Translations under genes and position numbers: made by a program
NCBI GenBank assembly: GCA_047967505.1
Contig: CM106538.1
Length of the DNA: 64,000 nucleotides
Origin: Dipteris shenzhenensis
Lineage: Eukaryota
Strand: one strand, 5' to 3'
The notes under the pieces: generated by a model
Told to the model about the DNA's origin: nothing
Databases searched by the model: none
Seen by the model: only the letters and a program-made list of their open reading frames with translations
Shown: positions 23,701-48,788 of the stretch, in pieces
Numbering within the stretch: position 1 is the stretch's first letter
How the letters are laid out: every line of letters begins with the position of its first letter

Positions 23701-26700
23701 GCCCATCCCATAAGTACTTGATAGGATAACATATCTAGCAGCGTGTTTTTTTACGGATGTGCATGACATGAGCAAAAATGGTATTTAATGCTCGATCGAC
23801 CATGCAAAGAATATCCGATGGGCACAATACTTTTCCTATGCCTCAACCTAGGTGGCATTGAAATGTTCTCAAAGAGGCACACCCATCGGATAAGTAATTG
23901 GTCAGATAACATACCTAAGGGCATGTTTTTTTGCAAATGTGCATATCACTACGGAAAAAACGGTGGATAATGCGTGATCGACCATGCAAAGCATATCCGA
24001 TGGTCACAATACTTTGACGCACCTCAACCTAGATAAAATGGACTTGGGTGCAAAGTGGATCCCCCATCTAAGAAGTACTTATTTGAATAAGACACCTAGG
24101 ACCATGTTTTTTTATGGTTGTGCATGACACTAAGCCAAAAACGGTGTTTTATGCTTGATCGACAATGCAAAGCATATCCAATGGGCACAATACTTTGCAC
24201 ACACCTTCAACTAGGTGGAATTGACTAATTAGACATATTGCCCTCCATGCTCATAGTTTGGTCTGTGCTTGATTCGTATTCAAACAATGGTCCTAGCACA
24301 GATGATGTACTGTTCAATGAAGATCTTTCCCTAGCGGTTAGACTTGAGCCCAAAACGACCTCTAAGTCAACATTTGAAGCACTATCTTCTGGAACAATTT
24401 CAGGTCCTAAGATACGTCCGGACCTAAGATGCATGTATGTTTCTAAGGTTCAGGTTGGATTTGAGCTATGCTATCAAAGTGTTCAAGTTGTAACAATCAA
24501 AATGTGCAAGTATGGTGGAGAGAATTATTGCAATGCGCTGTAATAATTATTGCAGCGCCCTGAATTATTGGGGCTTCTTACTCACTCAGTCTGGTCAATG
24601 CACTTGTGTTATGGAAATGTTAACCCATGCAAAGTGGCATGCCCATCCCATAAGTACTTGATCGGATAACATTCCTAGCATCGTGTTTTTTTACAGATGT
24701 GCATGACGCTAGAGCAAAAATGGTATTTAATGCTCGATTGACAATGTAAAGGTATCCGATGGGCACAATACTTTTCCTCCACCTCAACCTAGGTAGTATT
24801 GACATGTTATCAAAGAGGCACACCCATCTGATAAGTACTTCGTCAAATAACACACCTAAGGGCGTGCTTTTTTATGAATGTGCATATCACTAGGGGGAAA
24901 ATAGTGTATAATGCGTGATCGACCATGCAAAGCATATCCGATGGTCACAATACTTTGCACGCACCTCAACCTAGTTGAAACAGACTTGCATGCAAAGTGG
25001 AGCCCCCATCTGAGAAGTGCTTGTTTGAATAACACACCTAGGACCGTGTTTTTTTATGGTTGTGCATGACACTAAGGCTAAAACGGTGTTTTATGGTTGA
25101 TCAAAAATGCAAAGCATATCCGATAGGTACGATTTTTTGCACACACCTTAAACTAGGTGGAATTGACTTACATGTAAAGTGGTGCCCATCCCATAAGTAC
25201 TTGATCAGATAACATACCTAGCAGCGTGTTCTTTTATGGATGTGCATGACACCAAGGCAAAAATGGTATTTAATGCTCGATCAACCATGCAAAGCATATC
25301 CGATGAGCACAATACTTTTCCTACGCCTTAACCTAGGTGGTATTGACATGTTTTCAAAGAGGCACACCCATCCGATATGTACTTGGTCAGATAACACACC
25401 TAAGGGCATGTTTTTTTGTGGATGTGCATATCACTACAAGAAAAACGGTGTATAATGCATGATCGACCATGCAAAGCATATCCGATGGTCACAATACTTT
25501 GCACGCACCTCAACCTAGTTAAAACAAACTTGCGTGCAAAGTGGAGCCCCCATCCGATAAGTACTCAAGTGTTTGAATAACACAACTAGGACCGTGTTTT
25601 TTTATGGTTGTGCATTACACTAAAGCAAAAATGGTGTTTTATGCTTGATCGACCATATCCAATGGGCATAACACTTTGCACACACCTTAAACTAGGTGGA
25701 ATTGCTTACATGCAAAGTGGCATGGCCATCCCATAAGTACTTTATCGGATAACATACCTAGCAGCATGTTTTTTTACGGATGTGCATGACACTAAGGTAA
25801 AAATGGTATTTAAAACTCGATCGACCATGCAAAGCATATCCGATGTACACAATACTTTTTCTATGCCTTAACCTACCTAGGTGGTATTGACATGTTTTCA
25901 AAGAGGCACACCCATCCGATAAGTACTTGGTCAGATAACACACCTAAGGGCGTGTTTTTTTACGGATGTGAATATCACTACAAGTAAAACGGTGTATAAT
26001 GCGTGATCGACCATGCAAAGCATATTCTATGGTCACAATACTTTGCACACACCTTAATATAGTTGAAACAGACTTGCGTGTAAAGTGGAGCCCCCATCCG
26101 ATAAGTACTTGTTTGAATAACACACCTAGGACCATGTTTTTTTATGTTGTGCATTACACTAAGGCAAAAATGGTGTTTTATGCTTGATCGACAATGCAAA
26201 GCATATCCGATGGGCATAACACTTTGCACACACCTTAAACTAGGTGTAATTGACTTACATGCAAAGTGGCATTCCCATCCCATAAGTACTTGATCAGATA
26301 ACATACCTAGCAACGTGTTTTTTTACGAATGTGCATGACACTAAGGCAAAAATGGTATTTAATGCTCGATCGACCATGCAAAGCATATCCGATGGGAACA
26401 ATACTTTTTCTATGCCTTAACCTAGATAGTATTGACATGTTTTTAAAGAGGCACACCCATCCAATAAGTACTTGGTCAGATAACACACCTAAGGGCGTGT
26501 TTTTTTGTGGATGTGCATATCACTATAGGAAAAACGGTGTATAATGCGTGATCGACCATGCAAAGCATATCCGATGGTCACAATACTTTGCATGCACCTC
26601 AACCTAGTTGAAACAGACTTGTGTGCAAAGTGGATCCCCCATCCGATGAGTACTGGTTTGAAAAACACACCTAGGACCGTGTTTTTTTATGGTTGTGTAT

Positions 26701-28435
26701 GACACTAAGGCAAAAACGGTGTTTTATGCTTGATCGACAAAGCAAAGCATATCCGATGGGCACAATACTTTGCACACACATTAAACTAGGTGGAATTGAC
26801 TTACATGCAAAGTGGCACACCCATCCCATAACTACTTCATTGGATGACCTACCTAGCAATGTGTTTTTTTATGGATGTGCATGACACTAAGGCCAAAATG
26901 GTATTTAATCCTTGATCGACCATGCAAAGGATATCCGATGGGCATAATACTTTTCCTATGCCTCAACCTAGGTGGTATTGACTTGTTCTCAAAGAGTCAT
27001 ACCCATCCGATAAGTACTTGGTTGTATGACACACCTAAGGGCGTGTTTTTTTTCGGATGTGCATATCACTAGGGGAAAAATAGTGTATAATGCATGATCG
27101 ACCATGGAAAGCATATTCATGGTCACAATAATTTGCACGCATCTCAACCTAGTTGAAATGGACTTGCGTGCAAAGTGGAGCTCCCATCTAAGAAGTACTT
27201 GTTTGAATAACACACTAGGACCGTGTTTTTTTATGGTTGTTCATGACATTAAGGCAAAAACGGTATATTATGCTTGATCCACAATGCAAAGCATATCCGA
27301 TGGGCACAATACTTTGCACAAACCTTAAATTAGGTGGAATTAACTTACATGCAAAGTGGCGCACCCATCCCATAACTACTTGATCGGATAACATACCTAG
27401 CATCGTGGTTTTTTATGGATGTGCATGACACTAAGGCAAAAATGGTATTTAATGCTTGATCAACCATGCAAAGGATATCCAATGGGCACAAAACTTTTCC
27501 TATGCCTCAACCTAGGTGGTATTGACTTGTTTTTAAAGTCACACCCATTCGATAAGTACTTGGTTATATAACACACCTAAGGGAGTGTTTTTTTACGGAT
27601 GTACATATCACTAGGGGAAAAACGGTGAATAATGCGTGATCGACCATGCATATCCGATGGGCACAATACTTTTCCTATGCCTCAACCTAGGTGGTATTGA
27701 CTTGTTTTCAAAGAGGCACACCCATCTGATAAGTACTTGCTCAGATAACACACCTAAGGGCATGTTTTTTTATGGATGTTCATATCATTAGGGAGAAAGT
27801 AGTGTATAATGCGTGATCGACCATGCAAAGCATATCTGATGGTCACAATACTTTGAACGCACCTCAACCTAGTTGAAACTCACTTGCGTGCAAAGTGTAG
27901 CTCCCATCTGAGAAGTACTTGTTTGGATAACACACCTAGGACCGTGTTTTTTTATGGTTGTGCATGACACTAAGGCAAAAACGGTGTTTTATGCTTGATC
28001 GACAATGCAAAGCATATCTGATGGGCACAATACTTTACAAACACCTTAAACTAGGTGGAATTGACTTACATGTAAAGTGGCGCACCCATCCCATAAGTAC
28101 TTATTCAAATAACACATCTAGGACCTTGTTTTTATAGTTGTGCATGACACTAAGGCAAAAACGGTGTATAATGTAGGATTGCCTATGCAAAGCATATCTA
28201 ATGGAAAAAATAGTTTGCATATCCGTGAACCTATGTGGTGTTGAGTTTCATGCAAAGTGATGCTTCCATACCATAAGTACTTGTTCGGATAACATACCTA
28301 GGAGCACGTTTTTTAACTGTAGTGTATATCACAAGGATGAAAATGTTGTATAATGCATGATTAACAATGTAAATCATATCCGATGGGCATTATACTTTGC
28401 GCACACCTCAACCTAGGTAGTATTGATTTGTGTGC
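20781..28435 (+). repeat. Tandem satellite with a 182-bp monomer and about 546-bp trimeric higher-order repeat (left part, about 40 monomers)
   Basis: aagtact recurs every 182 bp (21141, 21323). The variant tggtatttaa recurs at 21601, 22146, 22692, 23238 and 23779, a period of about 546. Confidence 0.96.
24227..24625 (-). mobile_element. About 400-bp retroelement-like fragment (leader plus possible gag N-terminus) inserted in the satellite
   Basis: Interrupts the monomer ttgact|(ta)catgcaaag with no TSD. The minus-strand ORF begins MHLRSGRIL, a motif typical of Gypsy gag N-termini. Confidence 0.6.
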
Positions 28436-29355
28436 TGTTATGGATAAAATTGTCTAAGGAAAAAGGCATTAATATGTATGTGTGTTTGTATATGTGGCAA
28501 TAGTATAATAAAATATGATGTGCATAGGGCCCAAGGTTGAGGTGGCAGGGCATGACCATGTGCCACCCTTCCATGTAAGAGGACCCATAAGGTGTGTTGT
28601 ACATAATCCATGATAGTAATATTATAAAATGCAAGGTGGCATGGCTCCTCCATGTGCCACCCCTCCACCTAGACTGCATTTAGTGAGATATGGCTCAAAG
28701 TCCATGGGAGAAGCAATATAAAATAGGTGGAGATGGCTATTATATTGAGTTATTCCCTCCATATGGGATAGGCCCATGTGGGGGAGGTATAGAAGGTCTA
28801 AGAGAGCAAGTTAAATAATGGGGAAAGTAGGATGAGGTGGCAAGATTCCTTGTGCCAGCCCTCCACTTGTCCTCCTAGAGGTTTGAACATATTATAAAAT
28901 TGGAAAGAGACCAAGGGAGTATCATAGACTTGAGATATGGGGCTTGATTTATGTGGAAAATTGAGGCAAAGGGTTGTCGCACACAATTGAGAGTGCGTAA
29001 CCACCTAGCTCACATGGGAGACTTTTCCACACACACCATGCATGTGGGAGGATACATTAATGTGGAGAGACCCCCTCTTTTGATATTTCCTCTCATTCCT
29101 TTCTTTCAAATAAAGTATGGTTCTCTTCCCTTGATGTCTCCATCTCTACATTCCTCCTCCTACCACGTACATGCTTCTCTTCCCCTTCTCCTTTTCCCCT
29201 TGTGTCATAGTCTCCCTCTTCCTTCCCTCCATTTCTAATTCCTTTTTCCCTCCTATGACAACCGTTCGCTCTCATGATCTCCTTTTCTCCATGGCCCTTG
29301 AGCGTCGCCATGCCTAGCCTCTAGCCTCTGGTCTCGGTTTCTTTTCTAGCTAATA
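28436..29355 (+). repeat. Gypsy 5' LTR (920 bp), lacking a 71-bp TATA-containing segment
   Basis: TGTTA...TAATA termini; about 8 substitutions versus the 3' LTR by eye. Confidence 0.96.
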
Positions 29356-29359
29356 GATT

Positions 29360-29398
29360 TGGTGTGGCTGCTGGGATTCGAGCCCAGGTCTCCACGGC
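29360..29398 (+). promoter_or_regulatory. Extended primer-binding site: 39-nt antisense copy of the 3' half of tRNA-His(GTG), including CCA
   Basis: TGGTGTGGCTGCTGGGATTCGAGCCCAGGTCTCCACGGC is the reverse complement of GCCGTGG-AGAC-CTGGG-CTCGAAT-CCCAG-CAGCCAC-A-CCA. The T-arm stem-loop is visible directly; the His assignment rests on my recollection of plant cytosolic tRNA-His. Confidence 0.88.
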
Positions 29399-29496: not shown

Positions 29497-29700
29497 TGTG
29501 CGACAGTTTTTTTTCGGGACTGCTGCAACTTCTGGTTGCGGATAGTTTTCTGTGTTCACCCGCGCGACAGTTCTCTGGACTGCTGCAACTTCTGGTTGCG
29601 GACAGTTTTCTGCGTTCACCCGCGCGACAGTTCTCTGGACTGCTGCAGCTTCTGGTTGCGGACAGTTTCTGCATTCACCTGCGCGACAGTTCTCTGGACT
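29497..29700 (+). repeat. 60-bp tandem repeat (about 3.4 copies) in the Gypsy leader
   Basis: tgctgca(a/g)cttctggttgcgga...cgcgcgacagttctctggac starts at 29521, 29581 and 29641. Confidence 0.93.
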
Positions 29701-30059
29701 AACAGCAGATCCCGCGCCCCCCCTCTCTCTTCTCTTCCTCTCTTTCTCTTTCTCTTTCTCTTTCTCCTCTCCTCTCTTTTTATTAAAGAGTAGGATTGGA
29801 ACCCAAGACCTCCCCCTTCACAAAAGAAAGTCTTATCATTGGGACAACAAGTTGGAAGTGGTAAAAATGTAATGATTTTTGTTCATATATTGAAATCGCG
29901 GGAACTGTAACTCTCTAACCGTAGGGAGTTTGCTCTTGCTGTAAAAAGCAAAAATACTTCATTTTATGTGCTCTATCCACATCTCTTGCTAGATCGCCGA
30001 TTCAGAACTTCTCCAAGCTCACTTCACGGATGCACGCCACACGAGAAGGGTGGACATTT

Positions 30060-30470
30060 ATGTCACTTCTCGACGTGTTTAAGGAGTTGGTGCCTGTTTC
30101 TCCGCACCTTACGGCTACCAATGCATGAGATGTCTTCCTTGATCTTCATGTCGACCTTCAACAGCTGATTGTCCAGTGCATTATTGAAGGAGATGACGGG
30201 TGGAATGATACACTATGGATGATTCATGGTGAAGAACTACTGATACGCTGGGAGGATTTTGACTTTACTTCTACTCATTGTGCAGTGATCGAACTACTTG
30301 CTGCTTCAGAGGTAATTAAAACGGTGTCCTTCATCGAAGGGTGGGATGCTCCCCAAGCTTGGGGGGAGATTTGGTGCATCTGCTTGTTGATTCCTGTGGA
30401 TAAGCTCGTCCTGAATGGTTTATTCACAATCTCATTACAAAGGTTTCTAGGCCTCGGCTATGGTTGGTAA
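30060..30470 (+). pseudogene. Accessory ORF A, unknown protein of about 136 aa with one internal TGA
   Basis: MSLLDVFKELVPVSPHLTATNA*DVFLDLHVDLQQLIVQCIIEGDDGWNDTLWMIHGEELLIRWEDFDF...CLLIPVDKLVL...GYGW*. Homologous to 46455-46830 on the minus strand. Confidence 0.8.
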
Positions 30471-30694
30471 TGTTTCGACCAAGGAATCCATTTGTACCTA
30501 ATCAGTCTTTTGTGCCTCATTTCGAGCTTCAAATTGTAATTCTTTTTGGGCTTAAGATAAACTATCAACAAAGGATTGCAAGCTTATTTGGTGTTGAACG
30601 TTTGGCTCAAGTGTTGAATTCTCCCCACCCTCTCCTCCTACCTATCTTGGACTACCGAGAAACTTGGGATGTCCGAATTTTAGTCTTGGTGTGA
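30470..30694 (+). CDS. Accessory ORF B, 74-aa unknown protein
   Basis: Its ATG overlaps the ORF A stop (TAATG, 30468-30472) and its stop overlaps the RNase H ATG (TGATG, 30692-30696). Confidence 0.6.
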   Translation: MFRPRNPFVPNQSFVPHFELQIVILFGLKINYQQRIASLFGVERLAQVLNSPHPLLLPILDYRETWDVRILVLV

Positions 30695-31158
30695 TGACAT
30701 CTTGGATTCTTCAATTTGATGGAGCTTACAAACCTTCGACCAAGGCGGCTGGCGTGGGTGTGAAGCTCACTTCACCGGGTGGTGAGGAGTATTGTTACAG
30801 CAAGTCTTCACCCACAAGTACTTACAATCAAGCTGAGTACTCGGCGCTCATTTTTGGGCTACAAAAGGCACAAGAACATCATGCCAAGTAATTGGAGGTG
30901 CAAGGAGATTCTCAACTAGTGTGTGAACAAGTTAGTGGAAGGTGGAAGATGCGGAGCAAAGGCTTGGTTCCACGACATCAACAAGCCTTGGAACTTTGCA
31001 ACCAATTTGAAGAGGTAAAAATTCAGCATATCCCTCGAGCTCGAAATCTTGTTGCTGATTTCTTGGCACGTGAAGCTTGTACTTCAATCACGCATGATGC
31101 GAGTGGAAGCGCCACCCCAACAAAGCCGCAAGCCACGAAGGAGGGTGATCATTTGTAA
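30694..31158 (+). pseudogene. Stand-alone archaeal-type RNase HI (aRH) with one internal TAA at 30889-30891
   Basis: WILQFDGA, AGVGV, TYNQAEYSALIFGL, VQGDSQLVCEQVSGRW and HIPRARNLVADFLA: all four D-E-D-D catalytic residues plus the Arg typical of archaeal-type RNase H. Confidence 0.93.
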
Positions 31159-31294
31159 GGAATGCAAAGGTTGTGGTCATCATGAAACTAAGTGTTGGGC
31201 ATACTTAATACGAGTTCATCGACTTCGGAAGATCATCAGGAGGGTTCTCAAGGACATTGCTCAAAAGAAGGATGCCAGACCGCACACCCCTTGA
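31094..31294 (+). CDS. Accessory ORF D, 66-aa basic protein with a CCHC zinc-knuckle-like motif
   Basis: MMRVEAPPQQSRKPRRRVIICKECKGCGHHETKCWAYLIRVHRLRKIIRRV; CxxCxxxGHxxxxC spacing; overlaps the aRH 3' end. Confidence 0.55.
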   Translation: MMRVEAPPQQSRKPRRRVIICKECKGCGHHETKCWAYLIRVHRLRKIIRRVLKDIAQKKDARPHTP

Positions 31295-31436
31295 AGAAAT
31301 AGCATGGCGACTACAAGAACTGGAAGAAGCTGAAGGTGATGTGCAAGCTCTCCAACTGTTGACATTTGTCATGGCATTCTTGTTTGCCGTGATGAACAAC
31401 CTCATGCAACGCCGCGCCTCTAACCCTCGCTTGTAA
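31272..31436 (+). CDS. Accessory ORF E, 54-aa peptide with an acidic helix and a hydrophobic segment
   Basis: MPDRTPLEEIAWRLQELEEAEGDVQALQLLTFVMAFLFAVMNNLMQRRASNPRL*; overlaps the end of ORF D; shorter than the ORFs listed in the track. Confidence 0.4.
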   Translation: MPDRTPLEEIAWRLQELEEAEGDVQALQLLTFVMAFLFAVMNNLMQRRASNPRL

Positions 31437-31651
31437 AGATCGATGTGATATCATGAGGGTTGGTCCTTTTAAGATTGTCTATGTGCTATTCTATGCTGAA
31501 GATTCTTCTCGTGTAATATTTCACACTACACCAGTCACACCCTACCCTGCCTATGTGTGCTTTTTGGATGTATCTTCACCCGATTTTCAGTTCAAGCTTC
31601 CTCTTACTATTGTTCGTCCATAGATAAGCCCCTCTTTTCCATCTTCCAAGC

Positions 31652-32600
31652 ATGGCTAACATTCCCGTGTTTTGTGGACGGGTAGAAGAAAATCCAAATG
31701 AGTATCTTGTGGCCTTCAAGCGCCGTTGTATTTCTCTCAACTTTCTTACTGAAGACAGATGGCTATTGGTTCTTTCCACATTTCTAGAGGGTTTGGCTCA
31801 AGTGTGGTATGAGAAGCAAGCCGAAGACGTTCGCTAAAGCTGGCCAAGGTTGACAGCAGCAATGATTGAGTATTTCGGCAAAGAAGCGGAGTCGGAGAAT
31901 GTGTACTTGCAGGTGGCAAACTTGAAGCAGTCAGAAGGTGAGACGGCACGTCAATATGTGGATCAAGCGGCCGTGCTCCTGGACCGTTTGATTGCCACAC
32001 AAGAGGACAATGCCGGGTTTCGAGCTGGAATGACTCAGCATGTGTTGGGCTACCTTGTAGCAGGAGCGAGTGATGAATTCCGCCTCAAGCTTAAATGGGA
32101 GAATCCAGAAACTATGGTGCTAGCACATGAGATTGCTCAAAAGTTTGATAAAGTTTAGTCTGGACCCCGCTTCAAAGAAGATGATTGTCCCTCCGCAACC
32201 CCCTCAATTCCTGCAACAACAACTTGGGGGGTCTAACTCAGGGGCATACCCCCACCCCTCATCAAGGATGTATCCACCGCCTCCACCTCAAATGTATGGT
32301 CCTCCCTTAGATGCTTACCCTCAATAAGGTGGATATCCTCACCCTCCGCCTCGAAGATTTCCCCAACCTCGCCCACGAGCCCCCCTCCTCTCTACTCCCA
32401 TGGCCCCTCCAACTAAAGAGGCCCCCCTTGCAACAGAACCTGGAGTCAATGACCTAGCCAAGGCCCTGAATGATCTTCGGCTTGAGATGGTGGGCATCAG
32501 AAATCAAGCCAACCGCCCTCCAAGAGACCGTGCTAATGTTGTATTTATGAGTGCCATCAGAAGGGTCATTATCGCACAGAATGTCCCAATATTCCAAGGG
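31652..32600 (+). pseudogene. Gypsy gag with stops and frameshifts
   Basis: IPVFCG...ENPNEYLVAF, FLEGLAQVWY, LKQSEGETARQY, a proline-rich linker and a zinc-knuckle remnant YECHQKGHYRTECP near 32545-32586. Confidence 0.9.
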
Positions 32601-35600
32601 TGAATCTTCTAAGTGAGTCGGGCACTGAGGATTTTGATGTAGAGATCCTCGACCTCGGGAAAAGAAGTCGTGCCACCTCGGACCCCTCTCCAAACCATGG
32701 ACCGGGCCGCCCCAGGAAGAAGGTGTCCTTCTTAGAGCCGTCAGATGCTGAGATGGCAGACCCACCAACAGAGAAGACTAAAAGATCTCGCAGGAGTAAG
32801 TGGTCACCCTCGGATTTTCCCATCGGCTCAGGGCAAGAGGACTATTCGGTCGTTCAGGACCTTGCTCATCGGTCTTTGAGCATCACACTCCCTCAACTAA
32901 TAGCATTAAGCCCTAAGGTGAGACGTGGGTTGCAGCAAGGTCTCTCAACAAGGAAGAGCAAGAAAAAGGGAAAGGTACGAGAGGTATCTTCTATCTCTGA
33001 AGAAATTGATCGGCACCCACATACAGTAGATGTCATCATAGATAATTGCCGTGTCAAAAATGTGTGTGTTGATGGGGGAGCTGCATGTAATATCATGGTG
33101 CCCCGAATCATGAAGAAATTGAATTTGAAATGTACAAGGCATTCCTCCACTCGAATCAAGGTAGCAGATGGTCGACGACTCTCCACCATGGGAGTCATTG
33201 AGGATTTGCCCATCACTGTCAATCGGTTGACCACCACTGTTAATTTCTATGTAGTGGACATTGAAGATATAGGCCGAAGTTACCCAGCCATACTCGGGAG
33301 ACCATGGTTGAGAAAAAGTGATGCAGTCAGCTATTGGAAGACAGGACACATGTCTTTTGGTGCTTCGAAGGAGCAGATCCCAGTGCAACCTGGTGCCATG
33401 GAACCGGAAGAAGAAGAGGAGCATGACAGTGATACTATCTCATCTTCAGTGTCTGAGTCCACGGAAGAATCACACGGGGGGGAGGAATTCTCAGAGGAGG
33501 AAGTTTACATGATGGGGGTGTCTCCGACCCTACCACCTACAGAAAAGATAACAGCTAGTCCTCAACAGCTTGAATCTATGCTTTCCCCAGATCTCACTCC
33601 AAGTGAGAAAGATGAGTTTCTAGAAATGTTCAAAGATTTCCCTGACCTCTTTGCAACTAGCTACCACCACCTTCGCCATGTGACTACCATAGAGCACAAG
33701 ATAGAGCTGAAGCCAGATGCGAAGCCTGTGGCTCAGAAGTATCGGAGATTAGGGCCCCTGCAGACCGATGCTTTGCGCTTAGAGTTGCAGAAGCTTGTAG
33801 AGGCTGGGTTTATTGTTCCGGTTCACAATACTGAATGGGTTTCACCAGTGGTAGTCATCCCAAAGAAAAACAACAAGTGGCGGGTCTGCATCGACTATAA
33901 GAAACTCAATGCCGCCACCAAGAGGGATCATCATCCTCTGCCCTTTCAAGACCTCATTCTTGAGAAGGTAAGTGGTCATGAGATGTATACTTTCTGTGAT
34001 GGTTACTCTGGGTTTTATCAAATCAGAATTGCCGAGGAAGATGTGCTTAAAACCACATTTGCCACGCCCTGGGGGACATTTGCATTCAAAGTAATGCCAT
34101 TTGGCCTCACCAATGCTCCTGTTACCTTTCAAAGATTTATGCAGATGGTGTTTGCTCCTTATTTGGGGGATTTCTTGGAGGTGTTTTTAGATGATTTTTG
34201 TATATTCTTGTCACATAAGGAGCACAATCCAGACTGGTCAAAGACCTTCTATATCAATCCTGGGTTTGGTGAGCACACTCTGGCAGGTATTCTTCTCCAG
34301 CAAGGGGAGGATCGGTTCATGTATCCCGTTCGATTTGCTTCTCGACAATTGCTCGACACTGAGCGACGCTATTCAGAGGCCGACAAGCATGCCTTGTCTT
34401 TGGTGTTTTGCATTGAGAAATTTAAGCATTATGTGGCTGGAAAGTCCTTCTTTATACTCACTGGCACTGGTCTTGCAAAGCAGGTTCTTCAATCACCAAA
34501 TCCCATGGGCTAGTTGGCCAAATGGTTGGCAGTTCTACAAGAATATGATTTCTCTTTCAAAATTGTAAAAGGGGGTTGTTCCAACTTGAAGAATGCTTTG
34601 ATTGATTTAGAGGAGTGCCTTGATGTAACCCTTGTAGCAGCTTCTGAAGGAAAGGAGAAAGTAGTCAAAATCTTGTAGATACCACCATACCAAGGATCCC
34701 CAACTTGTATCCGCAGAGATAGTAGGCGCTACACCCTCCTTGATGGGGTGTTGTACTGTCAAGGCATGGATGGGGTACTCAGACGGGCCATTGATGCAGA
34801 TGGTGCCTGGATGGATTTTGTGGAGGCCACTATGCCAGTGACTATACAGCTAAGAAGATTTTACATGCTCGATACTATTGGCCGACCTTGTTCAAGGATG
34901 TCACTTTGTATTGCAAAACCTGTGAACCATGTCAATTCTTTGGTAGGAAGGATTTGCGTCCTGGGCAACATCACCCAGTAATGTCCATCCATCCGTTTCA
35001 GAAGTGGGGAATAGATTTTGTCGGGCCCTTGCCCATGACTGCCCGCAAAAAGAAGTATCTTTTGGTAGCCACTCAGTACGTCACTAAGTGGGCTGAAGCT
35101 ATCACCCTCTCTGCTGCAAATGGCAAGGCAATTTCAAATTTCATATTTGAACGTATCTGCACAAGGTTCGGGACACCCATGGAGATAGTCTCTGACCATG
35201 GGAGTCCATTCTTAAATGAAGCAGTGGAGTTACTCATGGATCGCATGGGCATTGATCATCACACTTCTAGCATCTATTATCCAGCATCCATGGGTCAAAA
35301 ACAGAGCGGACCAATGGCCTCCTTTGTAAAACCATGGGAAAAATGGCCGCAGGGAATAGGAGCCAATGGGATCACAAGGTCACTGAAGCCGTGTGGGCTT
35401 ACAACATCACTCATAAAACATCTACAGGTCACACTCCTTTTGAGTTGGTGTATGGTACTGAGGCAGTTTTACCACTAGAGATAGAGATTCCGGCCTTGAG
35501 ATTGGCACAGGAATAGAGGATGACAGAAGATGAACATGTAGAGGCTAGATTGGTACAACTTGAGAAGTTAGATGAGACCCGACGCCTTGCACTACACCAA

Positions 35601-35900
35601 ACAGAGATCCAAAAGAATCGACAAAAGGCCCGATTGGATGCTAAGATTCGCAAGGGATGGGAAGAGACTTTGCTGAGGGGGATGTTGTGCTATGCTTTGA
35701 TAACAGATTGGACCACCAAATGGATAAGAAGTTTCTGCCACTGTGGGCTGGTCCATACAAAGTCATCAAAGAACGTAGCAATGGGTCTGCACAAGTTCAG
35801 GAGCTACATGAACCATATGGCAAGAAGGTGATCAACAAGCGTTACCTCAAGCCTTTCTTTGTGCGTGATGGGCCCAGGCATGGAAATGCTGTGCATTCCC
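32600..35900 (+). pseudogene. Gypsy pol: protease, RT (C-terminal deletion), degenerate RNase H, integrase
   Basis: PR VDGGAACNIM and ILGRPWL; RT WVSPVVV, DYKKLN, DGYSGFYQI, MPFGLTNAP and FLDDF; RH region NPDWSKTF..RFASRQL; INT CKTCEPCQ, WGIDFVGP, IVSDHGSPF and WAGPYKV. Confidence 0.95.
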
Positions 35901-35905
35901 TGCCT

Positions 35906-35918
35906 GGGGGGGGGGAAC
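35906..35918 (+). promoter_or_regulatory. Polypurine tract
   Basis: GGGGGGGGGGAAC immediately before the 3' LTR TG. Confidence 0.9.
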
Positions 35919-36909
35919 TGTTATGGATAAAATTGTCTAAGGAAAAAGGCATTAATATGTATGTGTGTTTGTATATGTGGCAATAGTATAATAAAATATG
36001 GTGTGCATAGGGCCCAAGGTTGAGGTGGTAGGGCATGACCATGTGCCACCCTTCCATGTAAGAGGACCCATAAGGTGTGTTGTACATAATCCATGATAGT
36101 AATATTATAAAATGCAAGGTGGCATGGCTCCTCCATGTGCCACCCCTCCACCTAGACTGCATTTAGTGAGATATGGCTCAAAGTCCATGGGAGAAGCAAT
36201 ATAAAATAGGTGGAGATGGCTATTATATTGAGTTATTCCCTCCATATGGGATAGGCCCATGTGGGGGAGGTATAGAAGGTCTAAGAGAGCAAGTTAAATA
36301 ATGGGGAAAGTAGGATGAGGTGGCAAGATTACTTGTGCCAGCCCTCCACTTGTCCTCCTAGAGGTTTGAACATATTATAAAATTGGAAAGAGACCAAGGG
36401 AGTATCATAGACTTGAGATATGGGGCTTGATTTATGTGGAAAATTGAGGCAAAGGGTTGTCGCACACAATTGAGAGTGCGTAACCACCTAGCTCACATGG
36501 GAGACTTTTCCACACACACCATGCATGTGGGAGGAGACATTAATGTGGAGAGACCCCCTCTTTTGACTATAAAAGGAAGGGGCTATTCCTTGATGAGACA
36601 CGCTCATTCTTGTAAAGCCACCTAGCTAGTATTTTGATATTTCCTCTCATCCCTTTCTTTCAAATAAAGTATGGTTCTCTTCCCTTGATGTCTCCATCTC
36701 TACATTCCTCCTCCTACCACGTACATGCTTCTCTTCCCCCTCTCCTTTTCCCCTTGTGTCATAGTCTCCCTCTTCCTTCCCTCCATTTCTAATTCCTTTT
36801 TCCCTCCTATGACAACCGTTCGCTCTCATGATCTCCTTTTCTCCATGGCCCTTGAGCGTCGCCATGCCTAGCCTCTAGCCTCTGGTCTCAGTTTCTTTTC
36901 TGGCTAATA
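35919..36909 (+). repeat. Gypsy 3' LTR (991 bp)
   Basis: Near-identical to 28436-29355 plus 71 bp (36567-36637) containing TATAAAA. Confidence 0.96.
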
Positions 36910-37860
36910 GTGCAAAGAGGTACCCCAATCCGATAAGCACTTGTTCGAATAACTCTTCTAGGACCGTGTTTTTTGACGGTTGTGCATGACGCTAAGGCAA
37001 AAACGGTATTTAATTCTCCCTTCACCATGCAAAGCATATGAAATGGGCACAATACTTTGCATGAGCCTCAAAAGTGGTGGTATTGAGTTACATTCAAAGT
37101 ACTACACCATCTGATAAGCACTTGGTTGGATAATACACCTAAAAGCGTATTTTTTTATGGTTGTGCATGACATTGAGGCACAAATGGTGTTTAATGCGTG
37201 ATATACCATGCAAAGCATATCCGATGGGCACAATACTTTGCACGCACCTCAACCTAGGTGTTATTGAGTTGCAGCAAAGTGGCATGTCCGTCCGATAAAT
37301 ACTTGATCAGATAACACACCTAGGAGCGTGTTTTTAAACGAATGTGCTTGACACTAAGGCAAAAACGGTATTTAAAGCTCAATTGACCATGCAATGCATA
37401 TCCGATGGGTAAAACACTTTACCTGCACCTCAACCTAGGTGGTATTAACTTGTTTGCAAAGAGGCACACCCATATGATAAGTACTTGGTTGTATAACACA
37501 CCTAAGGGCGTGTTTTTTTATAGATGTGCATATCACTAGGGAAAAAAAGGTGTATAATGCATGATCGACCATGCAATGCATATCTGATGGTCATAATACT
37601 TTGCACACACCTCAACCTAGTTGAACTTGACTTGTGTGCAAAGTGGAGCCCCCATTTGATAAGTACTTATTTGAATAACACACCTAGGACCGTGTTTTTT
37701 ATGGTTGTGTATCACACTGAGGCACAAATGGTGTTTAATGCATGATATACCATGCAAAGCATAGCCGATGCGCACAATACTTTGCATGCACCTCAACGTA
37801 GGTGTTATTGAGTTGCATGCAAAGTGGCATGTCCATCTTATGAGTACTTTATCGGATAAC
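36910..37860 (+). repeat. 182-bp satellite, right part (about 5 more diverged monomers)
   Basis: The same monomer resumes in register after the Gypsy TSD. Confidence 0.93.
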
Positions 37861-38009: not shown

Positions 38010-39707
38010 ATGGATGTGATTTTATGTAGCAAAAGAGAAGTAGTTGCATTTGCTACAATCCATGATAGTGATCCCAATTCAGTTTGCCACTTTCAAAGAC
38101 TTGGCGAAGATAAGGTGGCAGTTACTGTATCAAAGATTCTTAGCGCACATGTTGAGCTAAAGTATAAATGTGAAGATATGGAAACACTTGGAGATGTTAT
38201 GCCCTACAATACATCCAACAAATCATTTATAGCATGGGACAAAGATGAGACTTAAGTAACAGACATTATCAAGAATACAAAGTGCACCACCTTGGATTTT
38301 ACTATAGGGGACATTTTACAAATGAGATCATTTGCAAATAAGACTATAGCAAAAGGTGAAGTATTGGGATTCGAACAAGTGGAGCAATGGTCATTTGCAC
38401 AAATGAGGATTCTAAAAGTCACTGATGATGGTATGGTTGATAACATAGCATCCTTATGTGATCCCTACTATGAGGTAGGCAAGAATATGGGATGGAGCAT
38501 GCAATTTTTAAACATGAGAAAGAGCCACATGGTTTTCAATGATAAAGACAAGGTATACTACAATATCAAAGGACCTAAAAAGCATGCCCATGTGCTAGGA
38601 TCTATCACTTCAAACATGGATGATTTCAATGTACTCAATTATAGAAGTGACATCTTATCTGGAGTGGATGAGTTCATTGGTTTCGAGAAACAAAATGATT
38701 TTAGAAGCGAAGCCTTATCTGGGGTGGATGAATTCTTGCATAGTGAGAAGGGCAAAGATTTCAATAGCGATGTCTTGTCAAGTGTGGATGAGTTCATGCA
38801 TATTAACAAACCTAGTGTCAATCAAGCTTGTGGATTTGTGAAAGCCATGCAAGATGTCCCAATGAGTGATGTTCTCTCAGGAGTGGAAGAGTTTCAAGGT
38901 TCTCAATACTCTTGTAGAATATTGAATTCATTGTATGGTCCTAAGAGTATGCTAAAAACGAGGATGAGATCAATAGAGGATTATTCAATATTTAACTTTG
39001 ATTGTGATATGGCCAAGGATGCAACGACCAATCATGGATGCTTGGTTACAAACAAATGTGAGGAGAAGAAGTGCATAAATACAGATAACAACGTGCACAA
39101 GGAACAAAAACGGTCATACATATGCATGAAGAGAAAGCTAATCCAAGCAGATCCACAAAAGCAACCAAAGAGGAAGAGAGTAATGAAGGAGGAGAACATG
39201 TTAAATGCATTGGGACATCTATGTTGCAAGCGAAGATGTATGCACTTCATTGATCTTGCAGACATCAAGGAATATAGAGGACATGTGTGGCAAAGAAGAG
39301 GAAGCGAAAGAAATGAATACCTTCTCACAAGTCTCTCTTGCTTTCTTCAGAATGGCAATAAAAGGCTAAGTTCAAGACTTGCAAATGGAAAAAAGATTTG
39401 CAATAAGGCATATCGCAATATTATTGGATTATCCCATGGTACATATTGGGATTTAGTCACCAAGGCGAAGGGTGGCAAGAAATTTAGCATTCACAATAAT
39501 AGAGGAAGGTCCAAATCAAGAATCTCAACTGTCAGGGTAGCAGCAATTTCGCAAGACTTCATACATGAAAATGATTTACCTCAACCCCATATATCTACCA
39601 AACTCCCTAACAGTGATGCGATCATTGAAATGCACCTTCTAATGTGGGTATCTATGATGACATCGCATAGTATGAAGAATGGGTCATTTACAATATCTTT
39701 CCTTTAG
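38010..39707 (+). pseudogene. DNA-transposon-related ORF: En/Spm TNP1-like N-terminal domain, SGVDEF repeats and a Cys/His region resembling Sola-type transposase N-termini; truncated
   Basis: ORFs 38010-38255 and 38292-39707 share a frame and are separated by one TAA. Motifs: VVAFATIHDSDP..HFQRLGED..V.V..ETLGD..FIAW; CCKRRC..R..VW..RNEYL..ICNKAY..IIGLS..HNNRG..PH. Family assignment is from recalled motifs only. Confidence 0.55.
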
Positions 39708-42289: not shown

Positions 42290-45200
42290 TGCCTATTTAC
42301 ATAGGCAGATTACCACATCTATAACCATCCAATTGGGAAGGAGATCCGATCTCCCATGTGGAGCAATTTGAACAAATATGCAAAGCATTCAATGCTCCTA
42401 GAGATCTAGAAATGGTTAATATATTCAGCCTCAGCCTAGATGGCAAGACAAGCCAATGGTACAAGGCCCTCAACCCAGAGGAGAAAGTCAACTGAGAGGT
42501 GTTACAGAAAGCCCCTTCATTATAGGCTTTGCCCCTAGTGGTCATAAGTGGAGCTCGATTAGTCAGTTATATCAAGTGAAATATATTGATAAGGAATCCC
42601 TCCGAGACTATATCACTAGGATCAAACACCTCAATTCCTGTTGCAAACCGCATGAGAGGATGAGCGACGAATGAGACTATTGCCACGCTTCCTCATGGGA
42701 TTGGTGGACCCGAAGCTACATGACCACTTAATTGTTATGAATCCCACTTCCTTTGAACTCTGCAGTAAAGTAGTTATCTGTATAAGTGATAATATGATGG
42801 ATAAGGACATCAAGGACAAGACTACAACTCCATCCAAGGTATCACAATCGCTAAGGTCTTCCATTATGGAGACTACCAAGAAGGAGGACAAAGGGTCTAA
42901 AGGTTTAGATATGGGTGAGCTAGCCTCTAGTCTATTGAATCATTTGGGCCAGTAGTGGAGGTCAAGAACCTCCTAGGAACCACCAAGTAACTCCCACTTA
43001 TTCCCTATAAGGGACAATGTTTTGTGTGGGGTATGCAATGGCAATAATGATACCTTTCAATGCCAATTTCCAAAGGTCCTTCCCCAATTGATCTACTAGT
43101 CGAGGCCCCACCTAGGCCTAATAGCCCCACCCAACCTGATGAATGCACAAGGATCCCCTCTAGCCAATCCAGGGTAATATAGGACATGAGATGCTCCATT
43201 ACCACCACCCATACTAGGTCTGCAACTGCCCCCACTTCGTATAACTCCAATAAACCAAATATTGGTGGAAGAACTACCTAATGATTGGGAGGAGGTAGAA
43301 CATGATCATAGTAGACATCCCACCTATCACCCTTATGAGGGGGGAAGTGGCATCAAACACTACCTCTTACATGAGGATCAACATGTTCCAGTGTTCCAGA
43401 CAATGCCCGTGGCTACAAGGGCAAGAGACATGAGCTCCTTGGCATGAAGGCCCCGATTCAATTATACATGTTAGGGTCCACACAAAGCAAGTGAATGCCC
43501 ATATAAGGGTGCAAGAAACCCTCCTCTCTCATGTTTTAAATGCCAATGGCCACATTTTTTAAAGGACTATCCATATAGGATCTTACCCTTGTGGTTTTGC
43601 CCACAACAAGTCCCATGCCCTTGTGTGCTGGAGTGGAGAATTTATTCAAGGATTGCCCCCTAAAAAGCCCAGTGACTCCAGCCACCCTGACCAAGAGCAC
43701 TAGCATCAATTTACTAAGTATTGAATAGGGTCACCTTGCAGTAGTGCCCTTGAAGGCCATCACAAGGATGTAGGAAAGGGCCATAGGCAAGGAGATGAAG
43801 AAGTAGCAAGGAAGGACAAAAAATCCACATTGCAAATTCGAGAGGCATGCCCAAGCCCTCGTGTAGACCAAGAAGGTCACCATGGTGGTCGAAGGCATGA
43901 ATCAGGGCTTATCCAAGATGGTTTAGATGAGAAGACATCCACCCTTTCCACCTCCTCTACCTCTGGACGAGTCCCTTCCCTAGACAATTCGAGGTATGCT
44001 CCCATACCTGGATGTAAATAAGCCAATGGGGGCCCAAGGCCTCACATCTCCAACCCCTCATAAGGGAACATATCCCGACCCAGCCTTAGAGAGACAATGC
44101 TTAATAGATTCTTAGAACTTGGTGCAAGAATGTCAAGAGAAGTTTGAGCATAGACTCAAGGTCAACAGAGGGTCAGAGACCACCATCCACCCTAATCACC
44201 TAACCACTCATAGGTGAGAAAAGGCACTTAGGGTGCTAGAGAGAGTGGAAGAAGAGAAACCTCCTAGCCCTAATAACTCAGGGTTAATGCAATGGATGTT
44301 CTAAGAGGACCCTATGCTGCAAACCCTATGCAACTTAATGCAATGGATGTTCCAAGAAGACCCTATGTTGCAAAACCTAAGAGAGGAAGGAGACCTTTAT
44401 GGCTTGGAGGAGCCTCTATCGATGGGGAGAGAGACCCCCAAGGAACCTTGTGATATTGCCAGGTTAGTGGCCTTCCTCTCCACATAGGTCAAGATGCCAA
44501 TTGCATCCTTGTTAAGAGGGAACCCTCTCCTATGGCGAGACCTCTCAAGATGGATGAACATGCAATTCTTGTCCCACCAACCCTGAAGACAACCAACCAC
44601 AGGAGGAGAGCCAAAACCTACCCAAGGTTCCCATCAATAAGTTAGGCTAGTACTTTGGAGGGGATGACACTAATGCAGCTATCCCCATAACCTACCAGAA
44701 CCAAAAGGTTGATGCCATCCTAGATGGAGGAGCGGGTGTGAGTGTCTGCACCAAAGAATGTTGGGAGAGGTGGGGAAAACCTTCCCTCAAGCAAACCCAT
44801 CTAGCAGTAAATCTAGCCAATAGAGGAATCGATGAACCCCTGGGAGTTCTCATGGGTATTAACATTAAGGTGTTTGGCTTCACATTCCTCGTTCGATTTG
44901 TGGCCATGGAATTCACCCAATAGCCCAGATATGAAGCCATCCTAGGTAGGCCCTTCCTACAAATGTCTAGACTCGTACATGATTGGTGCATGAATAACAT
45001 CTATTTACGGCATGAGGAGCAAATCATGCAAGTGGAACTATGTACATACAAGGCCCACCACTATCAAGACACCTTTTTGCCATGGAATCAGACACAACAG
45101 ACATGACTACAACACTGAAACTATTCCAATCTTATGAGAGAGGCATCGGGAAGGAAGCAGATGAGTTTTTGTATGCCCCTCTCCTCGAGTCAGAGTTCTC

Positions 45201-46255
45201 TCAAAATCGGATGCACATTCTGGCAAACATTGATGTCCCAGAAAGAATAGGGTTCTAAATAATAACCCTAAAGTGTGAAAAGTTGAATATAGTGGTGCCC
45301 CTTAGAATGTTTAACATGCTCCAAGTGAGGGTCAAATCAGACTACCGTATGTGGGTGCCACTACTACTCAGCATAAGTTCTCCTCCAATTAGGGATCTGA
45401 GTTAAGTTACCTCTCTAGTCGGCTCCATGAATGCCATGAAGGAGCCCCCCTCAGGTCCAAAGCTCCCAAGTTCCAAAAGCCCTAAGGCTTCCACCAGCGG
45501 CAAAGGGGGAAACCACCCAAAAGGAAGTGAAGGAGGAGGAGGATGAAAAGGAGGAACTATGACATGTACCTTCCCATTATAAGGCCTACATATGCTAGAG
45601 GATCACAAGATCTTATGCCAGCAATCCAAGAGAACCCAGGAAGAAGGGTGATTCCAAGGATACGATGGCCCAACCAAGGTTAAGGAAGTAAACCTGGCAT
45701 CAGAAGGTGAGGACCCATGATCAATATACATAGGAGATGACCTCACCCCAAACAAGGAGCATGCCTCAATTGCCCTCCAAGAGTATGAGGACTACATGGC
45801 TTGGAAGTACACATACATGAAGGGTATGCCACTAAGGTCATACAACACATGATACCCATGCTAGATGACATCAAGCTAGTGTGATAAAGTCCCTATTCTA
45901 TGAATCCCAAATATGCGCTCATAGTGAGGGAGGAGATCCAAAAATTCATAGATGTAGGATTCATCTATGAGATAGAGCATACAGACTAGGTGTAACCCAT
46001 TGTGATAGTCTTGAAGAAGAATGGAAAGATTCAAGTATGTGTAGACTTGAAAAAGGTCAATGCCACCACAAGCCGCGACCACTACCCATTGCCTTTCATA
46101 AAACATGTTCTAGAAAGAGTAGCCAGAAAGGAAGCTTATAGCTTCCTAAATGGGTTCTTGGGATACAATCAGGTATCCATCACCCCAAAAGATCAACATA
46201 AAACTACCTTTTCAATCGAGTGGGCTGTGTATTGGCCAAGGTGATGATATTTGGA
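42290..46255 (+). mobile_element. Highly decayed Gypsy internal region (gag, PR, partial RT), truncated in RT
   Basis: Gag-like GDPISHVEQFEQIC and ESLRDYITR; PR AILDGGAGVSV and AILGRPFL (about 44710-44960); RT KKNGKIQVCVDLKKVNATTSRDHYPLP and GYNQV..DQHKTTF. Confidence 0.88.
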
Positions 46256-46454: not shown

Positions 46455-46830
46455 TCATCGGATCGGCACCCTCCATCCATCATTGTCACCTAGGAGGAAG
46501 CAACGCAAATGCACCAAGTAGTAATCAGATAGCACTAGTTTGTGAACTGGGATTAAACAACAGATCCTTAAGATGAATCCCCAATCCTCAAGGAGTTCCC
46601 ACCCATCGACAAACCTTACTTCCCGTACCACCTTTGAAGATGCTAGAACCTCGACTGTTGTGCAACTTGGAGAATTAAAATTGAAACCTTACCAATGGAT
46701 GTTTAGAATTTCAATCTTTTACATCCCATGATAAGAGCTCCCACCCATCTTTTGAATCAGCAAGTTGGTGGATCATGTGGTGCTGCAAGTCAACTGGGAG
46801 TTCTAGGAATACATCTTTCCTAGTACTCAT
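46455..46830 (-). pseudogene. Homolog of accessory ORF A (one frameshift near 46713, one internal stop)
   Basis: MSTRKDVFLELPVDLQHHMIHQLADSKDGWELLSWDVKD/EILNIHW*GFNFNSPSCTTVEVLASSKVVREVRFVDGWELLEDWGFILRICCLIPVHKLVLSDYYLVHLRCFLLGDNDGW aligns collinearly with ORF A. Confidence 0.85.
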
Positions 46831-48788
46831 GACTGCCAACCTTAGACTTCAGAGAAAGTCTTCGAAATTTACAACTCAGTCATACAAGCTAATCTAGAAA
46901 TTTGTTTTACCTTTGGATGAGTCTGAGTGGCTGAAAAGGTCTACCAAAGAACATTAATCATAATACACAACAACTGGAAGATCCTCTGCTAATGTAGTCA
47001 ATCTTTGCAAGGTTGGGGATGGCTTGAATACAATTTAGAACTTGATTTCTGATGTAACAAACCAAGCTATGGTTGTATCAATTGATGAGCAATAAATTAA
47101 AGAGGGGTGGTCCCAAATTGATGATTTCTTTCCTATTTCTCATGTGGGTAGCAAGCCATCAGTATAGCAATGATTTCAAGAGTACATGCAGTAAAACATA
47201 CAACCATCAACTCCCCTAAGGGTGGGCACCACTTGTAGAAGTCAAAACCACAATACAAGCTGTATTCAACAAAATTTAGAGATAATTCCTTCCAACAAGC
47301 AAAATGGTTAAAGTAGTAAGGCAACCAGTGGTTGAACCTTTCGAATTTCCAAGGTGGAAATCTGCTTCCACGAGTGGTCACACAGTTGTCGTTCATTTAT
47401 GTGGCTTTAGAGAGCTGATTTTAGCAACTTTGGTAGAAATGTTGGGGCGTGGGTAGCAAATTAAAACATGCTATAGTAGAAAATGTTCACCACGCGTTAC
47501 GCAATTGTTTAGTGCACTAGCGCAGCCAAATGTTGAAGTAATTAGGCTCCATAAAATTGTATTGATGAGCAACAAAAATTTCTTTGCCACTATGGACAAT
47601 TGTATGCTACTTACGGGCACTGGCTTGGATAGGAACAAGCTAAGGGTGTGATTCCAGAGAGGCTAGGGGAGATATCGAGCTTCCAAGAATCATTTTTGCA
47701 AAAACAGCATAAAGCTTGATAATTGAATCGATGCTTGGAAATGAAACGGGTTTATGGACTCCTAAAAAAATGTTGGTGAAGGAATCTACATTGCAACCTT
47801 GCCCAAGAATGTAAGCTTCTCCAAATTCAATTCTAATGATTGAATTGATGCTGGGAAGCGAAAGGGGTCTTTGAAGATATTCCAGTCTCCCAAAAATCGT
47901 TTTGTTTTTTTAAAGAATCTGCTGTTGAAGGTGCATGGGAATTCAAAGCTTCCTCCAAATTCCATCTTGATGTTTGAATTGGTGGAAGTAGTCTCTCGAG
48001 ACCTCTAGCCTTCCAAGAATCAGTTTTACTAGAAACAGTGCTAGAACTTTGCAGAGACTTTTGCTATTGTTCTCTTTTCTTCAATGTTTAGAATTCTTCA
48101 GCTGCGGCTCTTCAACATTCTCTACTTGCTTCTCTTTAAGTAATTCAACAATTCATGGTTTTTATGCATTTCAATGCTGTTGCTTACATTGCAGCAAGGT
48201 CAAGGGAATGGAAAATTGGAGGTGACGAGGGCAGTGAGGGAGGAGAGGCCATGATTGAGGGAGGTGAGGAAAGCTGAGGGATTAGGTGAGAATGAAGAGA
48301 AGAGTAAATTGGAGAGAGTGAGCGACAAAGAGGATCATGGGTAAGGGAGAGGGGATGAAAAGGACGATAGAGAGGAGTGTGACTATGGGAGAGAAAGGGG
48401 AGAGAAAGCATGGGGAGTGAGAGGGAAAGAGAGAAGCACTAGGTGAGAGAGAAAGAGACTGCAGTGATGGGGGCTAGTTCATGAGAGAGGGAGAATTTGA
48501 GAACGCAAAGTGAAGGGATAGTTTTTTTTTTTTAAGAAAAGAAAACGAGGGCAAGAAATAAAGATAATGAGGGGGGTGGGATCAAGCAAAGGAGCATACT
48601 AAATGAATATACACACAAGGCTTTCATAAAAGATCATTAAGAAGGGGTGCTCTTCTTTTCAATATTTCAATTGACAAATGTATAGAAAGACTCATGGAAA
48701 AAAAAAACACCATAAAAGTGAATGGAAAGTAAAGGAATGATGAAACTAATTGCTCCAAATCCATTGTCATTGCTATGTAGATTCACAG

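Follow-up and report, generated by a model that had tools for sequence, protein, structure and literature searches.

Tiled open reading frames around a stand-alone archaeal-type RNase H in the apparent leader of a Ty3/gypsy retrotransposon from Dipteris shenzhenensis

A 64-kb stretch of contig CM106538.1 from Dipteris shenzhenensis (assembly GCA_047967505.1; hereafter the window) contains a series of small plus-strand open reading frames (ORFs) tiled around a stand-alone archaeal-type RNase H (aRH). These frames, designated A, B, aRH, D, E and F in their order along the strand, precede the gag gene of a decayed retrotransposon flanked by long terminal repeats (LTRs). On balance, we favour reading the region as a Ty3/gypsy LTR retrotransposon's leader, of the type with an extra aRH upstream of gag, and we take this leader to be a compact set of several genes in this family instead of an untranslated stretch. 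An earlier annotation made from the letters of the window, here called the original prediction, had described five of these frames as a virus-like chain coupled by overlapping stop and start codons and expressed from one RNA. Here, we describe the cassette, its relatives and its host element, and discuss how it might be translated.

The ORF cassette and its relatives

ORFs A and B are joined by the sequence TAATG, and ORF B and aRH by TGATGA (Table 1). At both junctions, the upstream frame's stop codon and the downstream frame's start codon overlap out of frame by one base, as in viral termination-reinitiation: the open frame 30219-30470 closes in TAATG, ORF B opens at the ATG at 30470, and aRH opens at the ATG at 30694. 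ORF B is closed by two consecutive stops (30692-30697), the second of which overlaps the start codon of aRH as ATGA. Both links had been called correctly in the original prediction (TAATG at 30468-30472, TGATG at 30692-30696), and its judgement that two successive one-base overlaps are improbable is borne out by simulation, as none of 300 Markov-1 random windows contains such a chain between ORFs of at least 50 codons. The window itself holds seven single one-base links among its 211 ORFs of this size, and one chain only. Besides, ORFs of 50 codons or longer on the plus strand cover 93% of the interval 30219-31651, a coverage reached by 0 of 2000 random sequences (mean 26%, maximum 79%). Chance does not explain this arrangement.

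The picture of a five-ORF chain stands for the two junctions and for the overlaps of D with the aRH tail (65 nt, with D in the +1 frame) and of E with D (23 nt). It had missed that ORF A and aRH are both interrupted by stop codons in the window copy, and the count of five falls short: a sixth ORF (F) and two mini-ORFs also precede gag. In relatives, ORF A starts at the position homologous to the ATG at 30060. Owing to the TGA at 30126-30128, only 22 codons are open from this ATG, and the open ATG-initiated frame begins at 30219. At the column of the TAA that interrupts aRH, all four relatives that cover it have a glutamine.

Table 1. Positions of the cassette, of its host element and of a second ORF A copy in the window
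Feature	Positions	Strand	Basis
ORF A, 136 codons in relatives, no known family	30060-30470	+	P0002/P0003 alignment; second in-window copy
TAATG junction, ORF A stop / ORF B start, one-base overlap	30468-30472	+	Sequence
ORF B, 74 codons, no known family	30470-30694	+	Five relatives
TGATGA junction, ORF B stop / aRH start; second in-frame TGA overlaps the ATG as ATGA	30692-30697	+	Sequence
aRH, type-1 archaeal-like RNase H, 154 codons, TAA at 30889-30891	30694-31158	+	Pfam RVT_3; relatives
ORF D, 66 aa, basic (19 K+R), CX2CX4HX4C at 31154-31195	31094-31294	+	ORF list; motif
Two mini-ORFs of 7 and 8 codons (31162-31185, 31182-31208), joined by ATGA	31162-31208	+	AUG map
ORF E, 54 aa, acidic helix-like N-terminus, hydrophobic segment, basic tail	31272-31436	+	ORF list
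ORF F, 56 aa, ends 28 nt ahead of the gag AUG	31453-31623	+	Codon-usage score 0.228
5′ LTR (TG...TA)	28436-29355	+	Pairwise match to 3′ LTR; GTGC flank
Primer-binding-site-like stretch, begins TGG, 4 nt past the 5′ LTR	29360-29388	+	Read from sequence
Three tandem 60-bp repeats, then CT-rich low-complexity tract, in the leader	29511-29700	+	Repeat analysis
gag, protease, reverse transcriptase, native RNase H, integrase	31652-35830	+	Pfam; interrupted by stops and frameshifts
Polypurine tract (G-run), directly 5′ of the 3′ LTR	35905-35917	+	Read from sequence
3′ LTR	35919-36909	+	Pairwise match to 5′ LTR
Second ORF A copy, diverged, frameshifted, in a related element fragment	46458-46875	-	tblastn with P0002, E 1e-21

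Relatives of the cassette are available in protein databases as gene calls on contigs of 513-1403 bp. These evidently represent further copies of this family, and conservation of the junctions in them is judged from protein ends. Scans of metagenome contigs with the ORF A and aRH alignments returned no relative, and neither did scans of viral contigs. Both relatives of ORF A (P0002 and P0003, 136 aa) have the same start (MSLL...) and the same end (...GYGW); identity to P0002/P0003 is 60% over 113 residues and 57% over 136. The five ORF B relatives are 65-81% identical to the window copy. Four of them (P0158, P0159, P0160 and P0161) end at the same stop (...LV or ...LVS), and P0158 represents a cluster of 34 members. 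The ORF B start MF[RH]P is present in P0158 and P0033, and P0159 has an internal methionine at the same column. For aRH, the start methionine is shared by four of five relatives, and the stop (...HL) by both of those that reach the end. P0154 and P0155 are intact aRH proteins of 154 aa (84% and 81% identity), and P0156 and P0005 share the start methionine and are cut short. The nearest relatives of ORF A are thus 57-60% identical, versus the 81-84% reached for B and aRH; either ORF A evolves far more rapidly, or its relatives come from another subfamily.

To judge from these proteins, whose terminal residues match at both ends although identity is only 57-84%, A, B and aRH are separate ORFs and not fragments of one. 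The original prediction had allowed that the family might fuse these segments into a single frame, and for A, B and aRH no such fusion was found as the rule: the relatives keep separate ORFs with the same ends. The small ORFs could in principle have arisen through frameshift decay from a single long accessory ORF in an ancestor, given that the window copy is decayed (stops at 30126 and 30889, several frameshifts in gag-pol) and that in P0033, one of the five ORF B relatives, B continues into aRH without a change of frame. The shared ends counted above (2/2 for A, 4/5 for B, 4/5 and 2/2 for aRH) contradict this, and P0033 is itself damaged, with an internal aRH deletion and a frameshift, leaving the debris explanation largely refuted and very improbable. 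In our assessment, A, B and aRH are likely to form a real cassette of separate, conserved ORFs.

The RNase H is readily recognized. RVT_3 matches both halves of the interrupted frame in Pfam (2.3e-08 and 1.1e-11) and the intact relatives P0154/P0155 (4.4e-29), and the best PDB matches are the RNase HI entries 4e19, 3hst and 2ehg (Halobacterium, Mycobacterium and Sulfolobus type). The blocks FDGA, AEY, GDSQ and AD-LA, which we take to be the catalytic DEDD residues, align with those of solved RNase HI. By all of these sequence indications, aRH is a gene.

ORF A belongs to no Pfam family, and for its relative P0002 the Atlas yielded weak F-box-like leads only (0.85-0.91), at chance level. Evidence for selection comes from the second, diverged copy within the window, which in nucleotide alignment is 62/75/37% identical to ORF A at codon positions 1/2/3 (Fisher p 9e-7). 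The ratio of nonsynonymous to synonymous differences (pN/pS) is 0.47 in the frame of ORF A, versus 1.06 and 1.47 when read out of frame. On account of the codon-position pattern, we conclude that ORF A is a gene under purifying selection, and apparently a fast-evolving one.

The remaining ORFs are supported to different degrees. ORF B is probably a gene, judging from its conservation: it is open in all six copies seen, contains an invariant core (VILFGLKI), and tolerates a 7-codon gap in P0160 that leaves the frame intact. Its codon-usage score of 0.185 is reached by 1% of random ORFs (null mean 0.023, sd 0.071), and it has no Pfam family. ORF D is, as originally described, a basic frame with a CCHC knuckle that overlaps the end of aRH. 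The knuckle pattern, CX2CX4HX4C, occurs only twice when all six frames of the window are translated (~128,000 positions). Within the 21 codons of the aRH/D overlap, the changes deduced from P0154 and P0155 are distributed over aRH codon positions as 5:0:2 and 7:1:2, compared with 9:10:2 and 11:10:1 in the aRH domain; they concentrate at aRH position 1, which is D position 3, and favour the D frame, in a calculation that assumes minimal codon changes, does not see changes silent in aRH, and draws on few data from two relatives that are not independent. The codon-usage score of D is 0.106 (p 0.13, not significant), and D has no Pfam family and no significant PDB sequence match. Support for ORF D is moderate, and we consider it reasonably likely to be a gene.

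ORF E contains the hydrophobic segment ascribed to it in the original prediction (Kyte-Doolittle 1.80), which may form a membrane-like helix. Its codon-usage score of 0.314 is reached by 0 of 3029 random and 0 of 16 antisense ORFs; no Pfam family and no usable Atlas match were found for it. Codon usage suggests that E and F are possibly coding, and as to E or F being a gene we lean somewhat to the doubtful side. Absence of conservation in B, D and E, which the original prediction had named as an outcome that would speak against it, is thus not what was found for B, which is conserved; for D, the signs are indirect (the knuckle and the overlap substitutions), and for E they come from codon usage.

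It is also conceivable that only ORF A and aRH are genes, and that B, D, E and F are spacer or uORF-like (upstream-ORF-like) frames, relics (an old nucleocapsid knuckle, for example), or fortuitous ORFs not yet closed because the copies are young. Identities of 65-81% for B and 76-84% for aRH are near those expected from neutral drift at an estimated ~10% nucleotide divergence, the AlphaFold2 model of B has a mean predicted local distance difference test (pLDDT) score of 47.2, the codon usage of D is not significant, and E and F are without known relatives (the Atlas was consulted for E only, and no sequence homology search was made). We nevertheless regard this reading as quite unlikely. It is opposed by the conservation of B in 6/6 copies with its invariant core and in-frame gap, by a perfect knuckle in a strongly basic 66-aa ORF, a combination that chance is very unlikely to produce, by the substitution pattern that favours the D frame, by scores of E and F far above those of random ORFs, and by an ORF tiling of 93% that was matched by none of the 2000 random sequences.

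Several observations weigh against taking the whole cassette as genes, and the fused frame of P0033, the near-neutral identity of B and the limits of the overlap calculation for D belong among them. There is an ascertainment bias in the relatives, as broken copies are invisible because gene-call databases contain open frames only. The codon-usage test is weak because the sure genes A and aRH themselves score 0.12-0.14 and reach p values of 0.05-0.09 only, and the high score of E may reward amino-acid composition. Structure prediction, which the original prediction had proposed for each ORF, was run for A and B and gave low confidence for both: the AlphaFold2 model of A (mean pLDDT 62.9) has no PDB fold match (Foldseek, E<=0.001), and that of B is poorer still.

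The host element and its surroundings

The original prediction placed the cassette in a retrotransposon leader, and the flanking features agree with this: a pair of LTRs in direct orientation, a GTGC target duplication on both flanks, a stretch resembling a primer-binding site (PBS), a polypurine tract, and the gene order gag, protease (PR), reverse transcriptase (RT), RNase H (RH) and integrase (INT). The LTRs align in two blocks, with identities of 99.2% (28435-29086 versus 35918-36570) and 98.6% (29078-29356 versus 36632-36910). The 3′ LTR has ~62-71 bp extra near 36570-36632 that are absent from the 5′ LTR, the remainder being ~99% alike. From the 5′ LTR to the gag AUG at 31652, the leader measures 2.3 kb, and the ORF cassette fills its 3′ two thirds.

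The PBS-like stretch looks complementary to a tRNA 3′ end (acceptor plus T arm). It is ~29 nt long, which far exceeds the usual PBS length of 12-18 nt, and what seems, when read by eye, to be a second tRNA-like piece lies in the leader at ~29790-29860. Searches of the leader, including the PBS-like stretch, with ARAGORN and Rfam gave no match.

Downstream of the cassette, Pfam recognizes Retrotrans_gag (weak), Asp_protease_2, RVT_1, RT_RNaseH, Integrase_H2C2 and rve in this order, with all frames broken. RT is internally deleted, as RVT_1 is matched at profile positions 1-165 of 205, and the nucleocapsid (NC) knuckle of gag near 32537 is broken. No aRH was found by Pfam within pol, which has the ordinary order PR-RT-RH-INT. 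With gag-pol frameshifted and partly deleted, and because of the TGA in ORF A (30126) and the TAA in aRH (30889), the window copy is a dead, pseudogene descendant, despite its near-identical LTRs.

The element is inserted in a satellite array with a period of 182 bp and copies that are 60-90% alike (26000-28434 and 36910-37850). The second ORF A copy lies in a related element fragment, together with a related LTR piece at 49138-49774 and a CT-rich tract at ~48190-48440 (minus strand), as in the main leader. This copy stops five codons later than ORF A, and its TGA is overlapped by an ATG (ATGA, 46458-46470, minus strand) that opens a 23-codon frame. Downstream, it is truncated by another element: a pol fragment of gypsy type (44720-46232, plus strand) abuts and truncates the element with the second ORF A copy. 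The RT part of this fragment is 40% and its PR part 27% identical to the dead element, and Pfam searches of the minus-strand frames around 44720-46232 gave no match. The other CX2CX4HX4C motif of the window, at 58018-58059 (plus strand), may belong to gag of another retroelement. Further afield, an ORF of 461 aa with a repeated motif D/EVLSGVDEF lies at 38322-39707 (plus strand), and between 16000 and 22000 the GC skew falls to -0.69 and the AT skew to -0.41, suggesting a strand-biased low-complexity or repeat tract.

Possible routes of translation

Under stop-start coupling, the full-length RNA would be translated from the AUG of ORF A. At UAAUG, a fraction of the terminating ribosomes would restart on ORF B, and at UGAUGA, a fraction would restart on aRH. 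Products would then be expected in stepwise falling amounts, as in caliciviruses, influenza B, SART1 and caulimoviruses, the latter with a helper protein. Leaky scanning cannot reach B or aRH, since ORF A contains 13 AUGs. Past aRH, ribosomes would be led on to the AUG of E by the two mini-ORFs of 7 and 8 codons; as these hold the sole AUGs between the aRH stop and E, reinitiation could proceed to it. ORF D would be reached via another route, either reinitiation or leaky scanning past short ORFs inside aRH, or a frameshift. A candidate Ty3-like +1 frameshift site in the aRH frame (GCG-AGU-G, 31099-31105) was rejected, because relatives have T-S instead of A-S at this place. With 40 AUGs ahead of it, gag would depend on additional reinitiation events, on shunting or on splicing.

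At 30665, upstream of the second junction, lies a UGGGA that is encoded by W-D, a residue pair present in four of the five ORF B relatives. The UGGGA resembles the core of Motif 1 of caliciviruses and influenza B (UAUGGGAA), a motif complementary to helix 26 of 18S rRNA, and it is located 27 nt upstream of the ORF B stop, versus 34-73 nt in those viruses (PMC2793014; this and the other papers cited here are drawn on in excerpt, and what is said of them holds for the excerpts). As a 5-mer, UGGGA is expected by chance in an estimated ~6% of 60-nt windows. A weak hairpin is predicted ~30 nt downstream of UGAUG (z -1.70), where 13 of 200 shuffles fold equally well.

Other observations speak against the coupling model. 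The 100 nt upstream of the ORF A stop contain no UGGGA, and fold energies at the junctions (z -0.18, +1.17, +0.42, -1.70, -0.35 and -0.14) indicate no significant structure: the 103 nt downstream of the A/B junction give the +1.17, and the 106-nt stretches upstream fold like shuffles (z -0.18 and +0.42), with no Motif 2/2*-like stem. Furthermore, the AUG of D, at 62 nt upstream of the aRH stop, misfits simple stop-start coupling. Taken with the exact overlaps, these results leave the production of B and aRH by stop-start coupling close to an even call, leaning slightly against.

Part of the same evidence suits a different route, in which the ORFs are real and each has a spliced or subgenomic RNA to itself, or is expressed through an internal promoter, an internal ribosome entry site or a shunt, with the overlaps reflecting compaction only. 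The 40 AUGs before gag require some bypass in any case, folding revealed no structured element around the junctions, D is unreachable by simple coupling, and splicing is known in related Tat/Ogre elements. What makes this route unlikely in our view is that exact one-base overlaps at two successive junctions are apparently kept in relatives. Such overlaps are a signature of coupled translation (PMC10275272, PMC5902531), and compaction alone does not predict them.

A, B and aRH might also be joined as fusion proteins by programmed -1 ribosomal frameshifting, as in retroviral gag-pol. Both shifts are indeed -1, each downstream frame is already open ahead of the upstream stop (over 64 nt and 94 nt), and P0033 offers a natural B-aRH fusion. 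By inspection, however, a canonical X XXY YYZ slippery heptamer is absent from both overlaps, the structure downstream is unstable at A/B and weak at B/aRH, and the conserved AUGs located exactly at the stops would be unneeded for frameshifting. We therefore hold such fusions to be extremely improbable.

Comparison with known elements and implications

A stand-alone aRH upstream of gag is already described (PMC10508981), a point that the original prediction had not noticed. A free aRH ORF in this place defines the Tat 'structure #4', or 'pre-capsid', arrangement, reported from four mosses and Selaginella tamariscina (PMC10508981, PMC13468544), whose authors ask how aRH could work from a separate ORF. 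The element in the window resembles structure #4 in having an RVT_3 aRH free-standing between the 5′ LTR and gag, and a pol without aRH. It differs in that the excerpted accounts describe the aRH ORF alone, without flanking ORFs or overlapping codons, whereas here aRH is the third of five to six tiled ORFs.

Seed-plant Tat elements, Ogre among them, also carry accessory ORFs upstream of gag, and these extra ORFs (eORFs) encode plant-mobile-domain or transposase-28 domains; moss Tat-like elements are reported without extra ORFs (PMC4408406). The cassette shares with the Tat eORFs the sense-strand location between the 5′ LTR and gag (PMC4408406). Unlike them, A, B, D and E match no Pfam family, and they are far smaller frames linked into a chain through overlapping stop and start codons.

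With the Caulimoviridae, which are likewise reverse-transcribing elements of plants, the leader shares consecutive ORFs with short overlaps or fused stop-start codons, an arrangement that in their pregenomic RNA points to polycistronic translation (PMC5902531). Cauliflower mosaic virus needs its transactivator (TAV, or P6) for reinitiation past long ORFs (PMC5902531). In contrast, Pfam searches of A, B, D and E, as well as P0002 and P0158, found no TAV/viroplasmin and no family of any kind (E<=1). Termination-reinitiation at UAAUG or AUGA is known from SART1, caliciviruses, influenza B BM2 and the hypovirus CHV1 (PMC10275272, PMC2793014, PMC2699510), and the UAAUG of SART1 is followed by a stable hairpin ~34 nt downstream (PMC5902531). 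LTR retrotransposons are known to rely on frameshifting rather than reinitiation for gag-pol, and UAAUG coupling is described for non-LTR elements (PMC5902531). The junctions here resemble those systems in their shared stop-start nucleotides (UAAUG, UGAUGA) and, more tentatively, in the UGGGA core and the weak hairpin at the second junction. They differ in that two, possibly more, couplings would follow one another instead of one, in the absence of significant RNA structure, and in that the first junction has no motif nearby.

For LTR retrotransposons, no description of ORFs chained by stop-start overlaps was found in the literature covered, which excludes supplements that may be more detailed. 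The element type is known, and the multi-ORF chained leader appears to be new. A bolder reading is that no LTR retrotransposon family before this one was known to have a polycistronic leader like that of caulimoviruses, which here would yield five to six proteins by serial termination-reinitiation without a TAV-like helper; as a whole, we consider this somewhat unlikely.

Should it prove true, the question raised in print of how an aRH on its own ORF is expressed, and also how it is dosed, would have an answer; D could bring the RNase H to nucleic acid, and E would be a small membrane protein. Termination-reinitiation has so far been described for RNA viruses, for a single non-LTR element and, with a helper protein, for plant pararetroviruses. 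If the coupling is real, it would extend to LTR retrotransposons, with at least two successive couplings on one RNA. If it is not, the conserved leader with several ORFs would still be a useful annotation of structure #4 elements. In either case, ORF A adds at least one selected protein, with no fold match in the PDB, to the accessory genes of plant retroelements.

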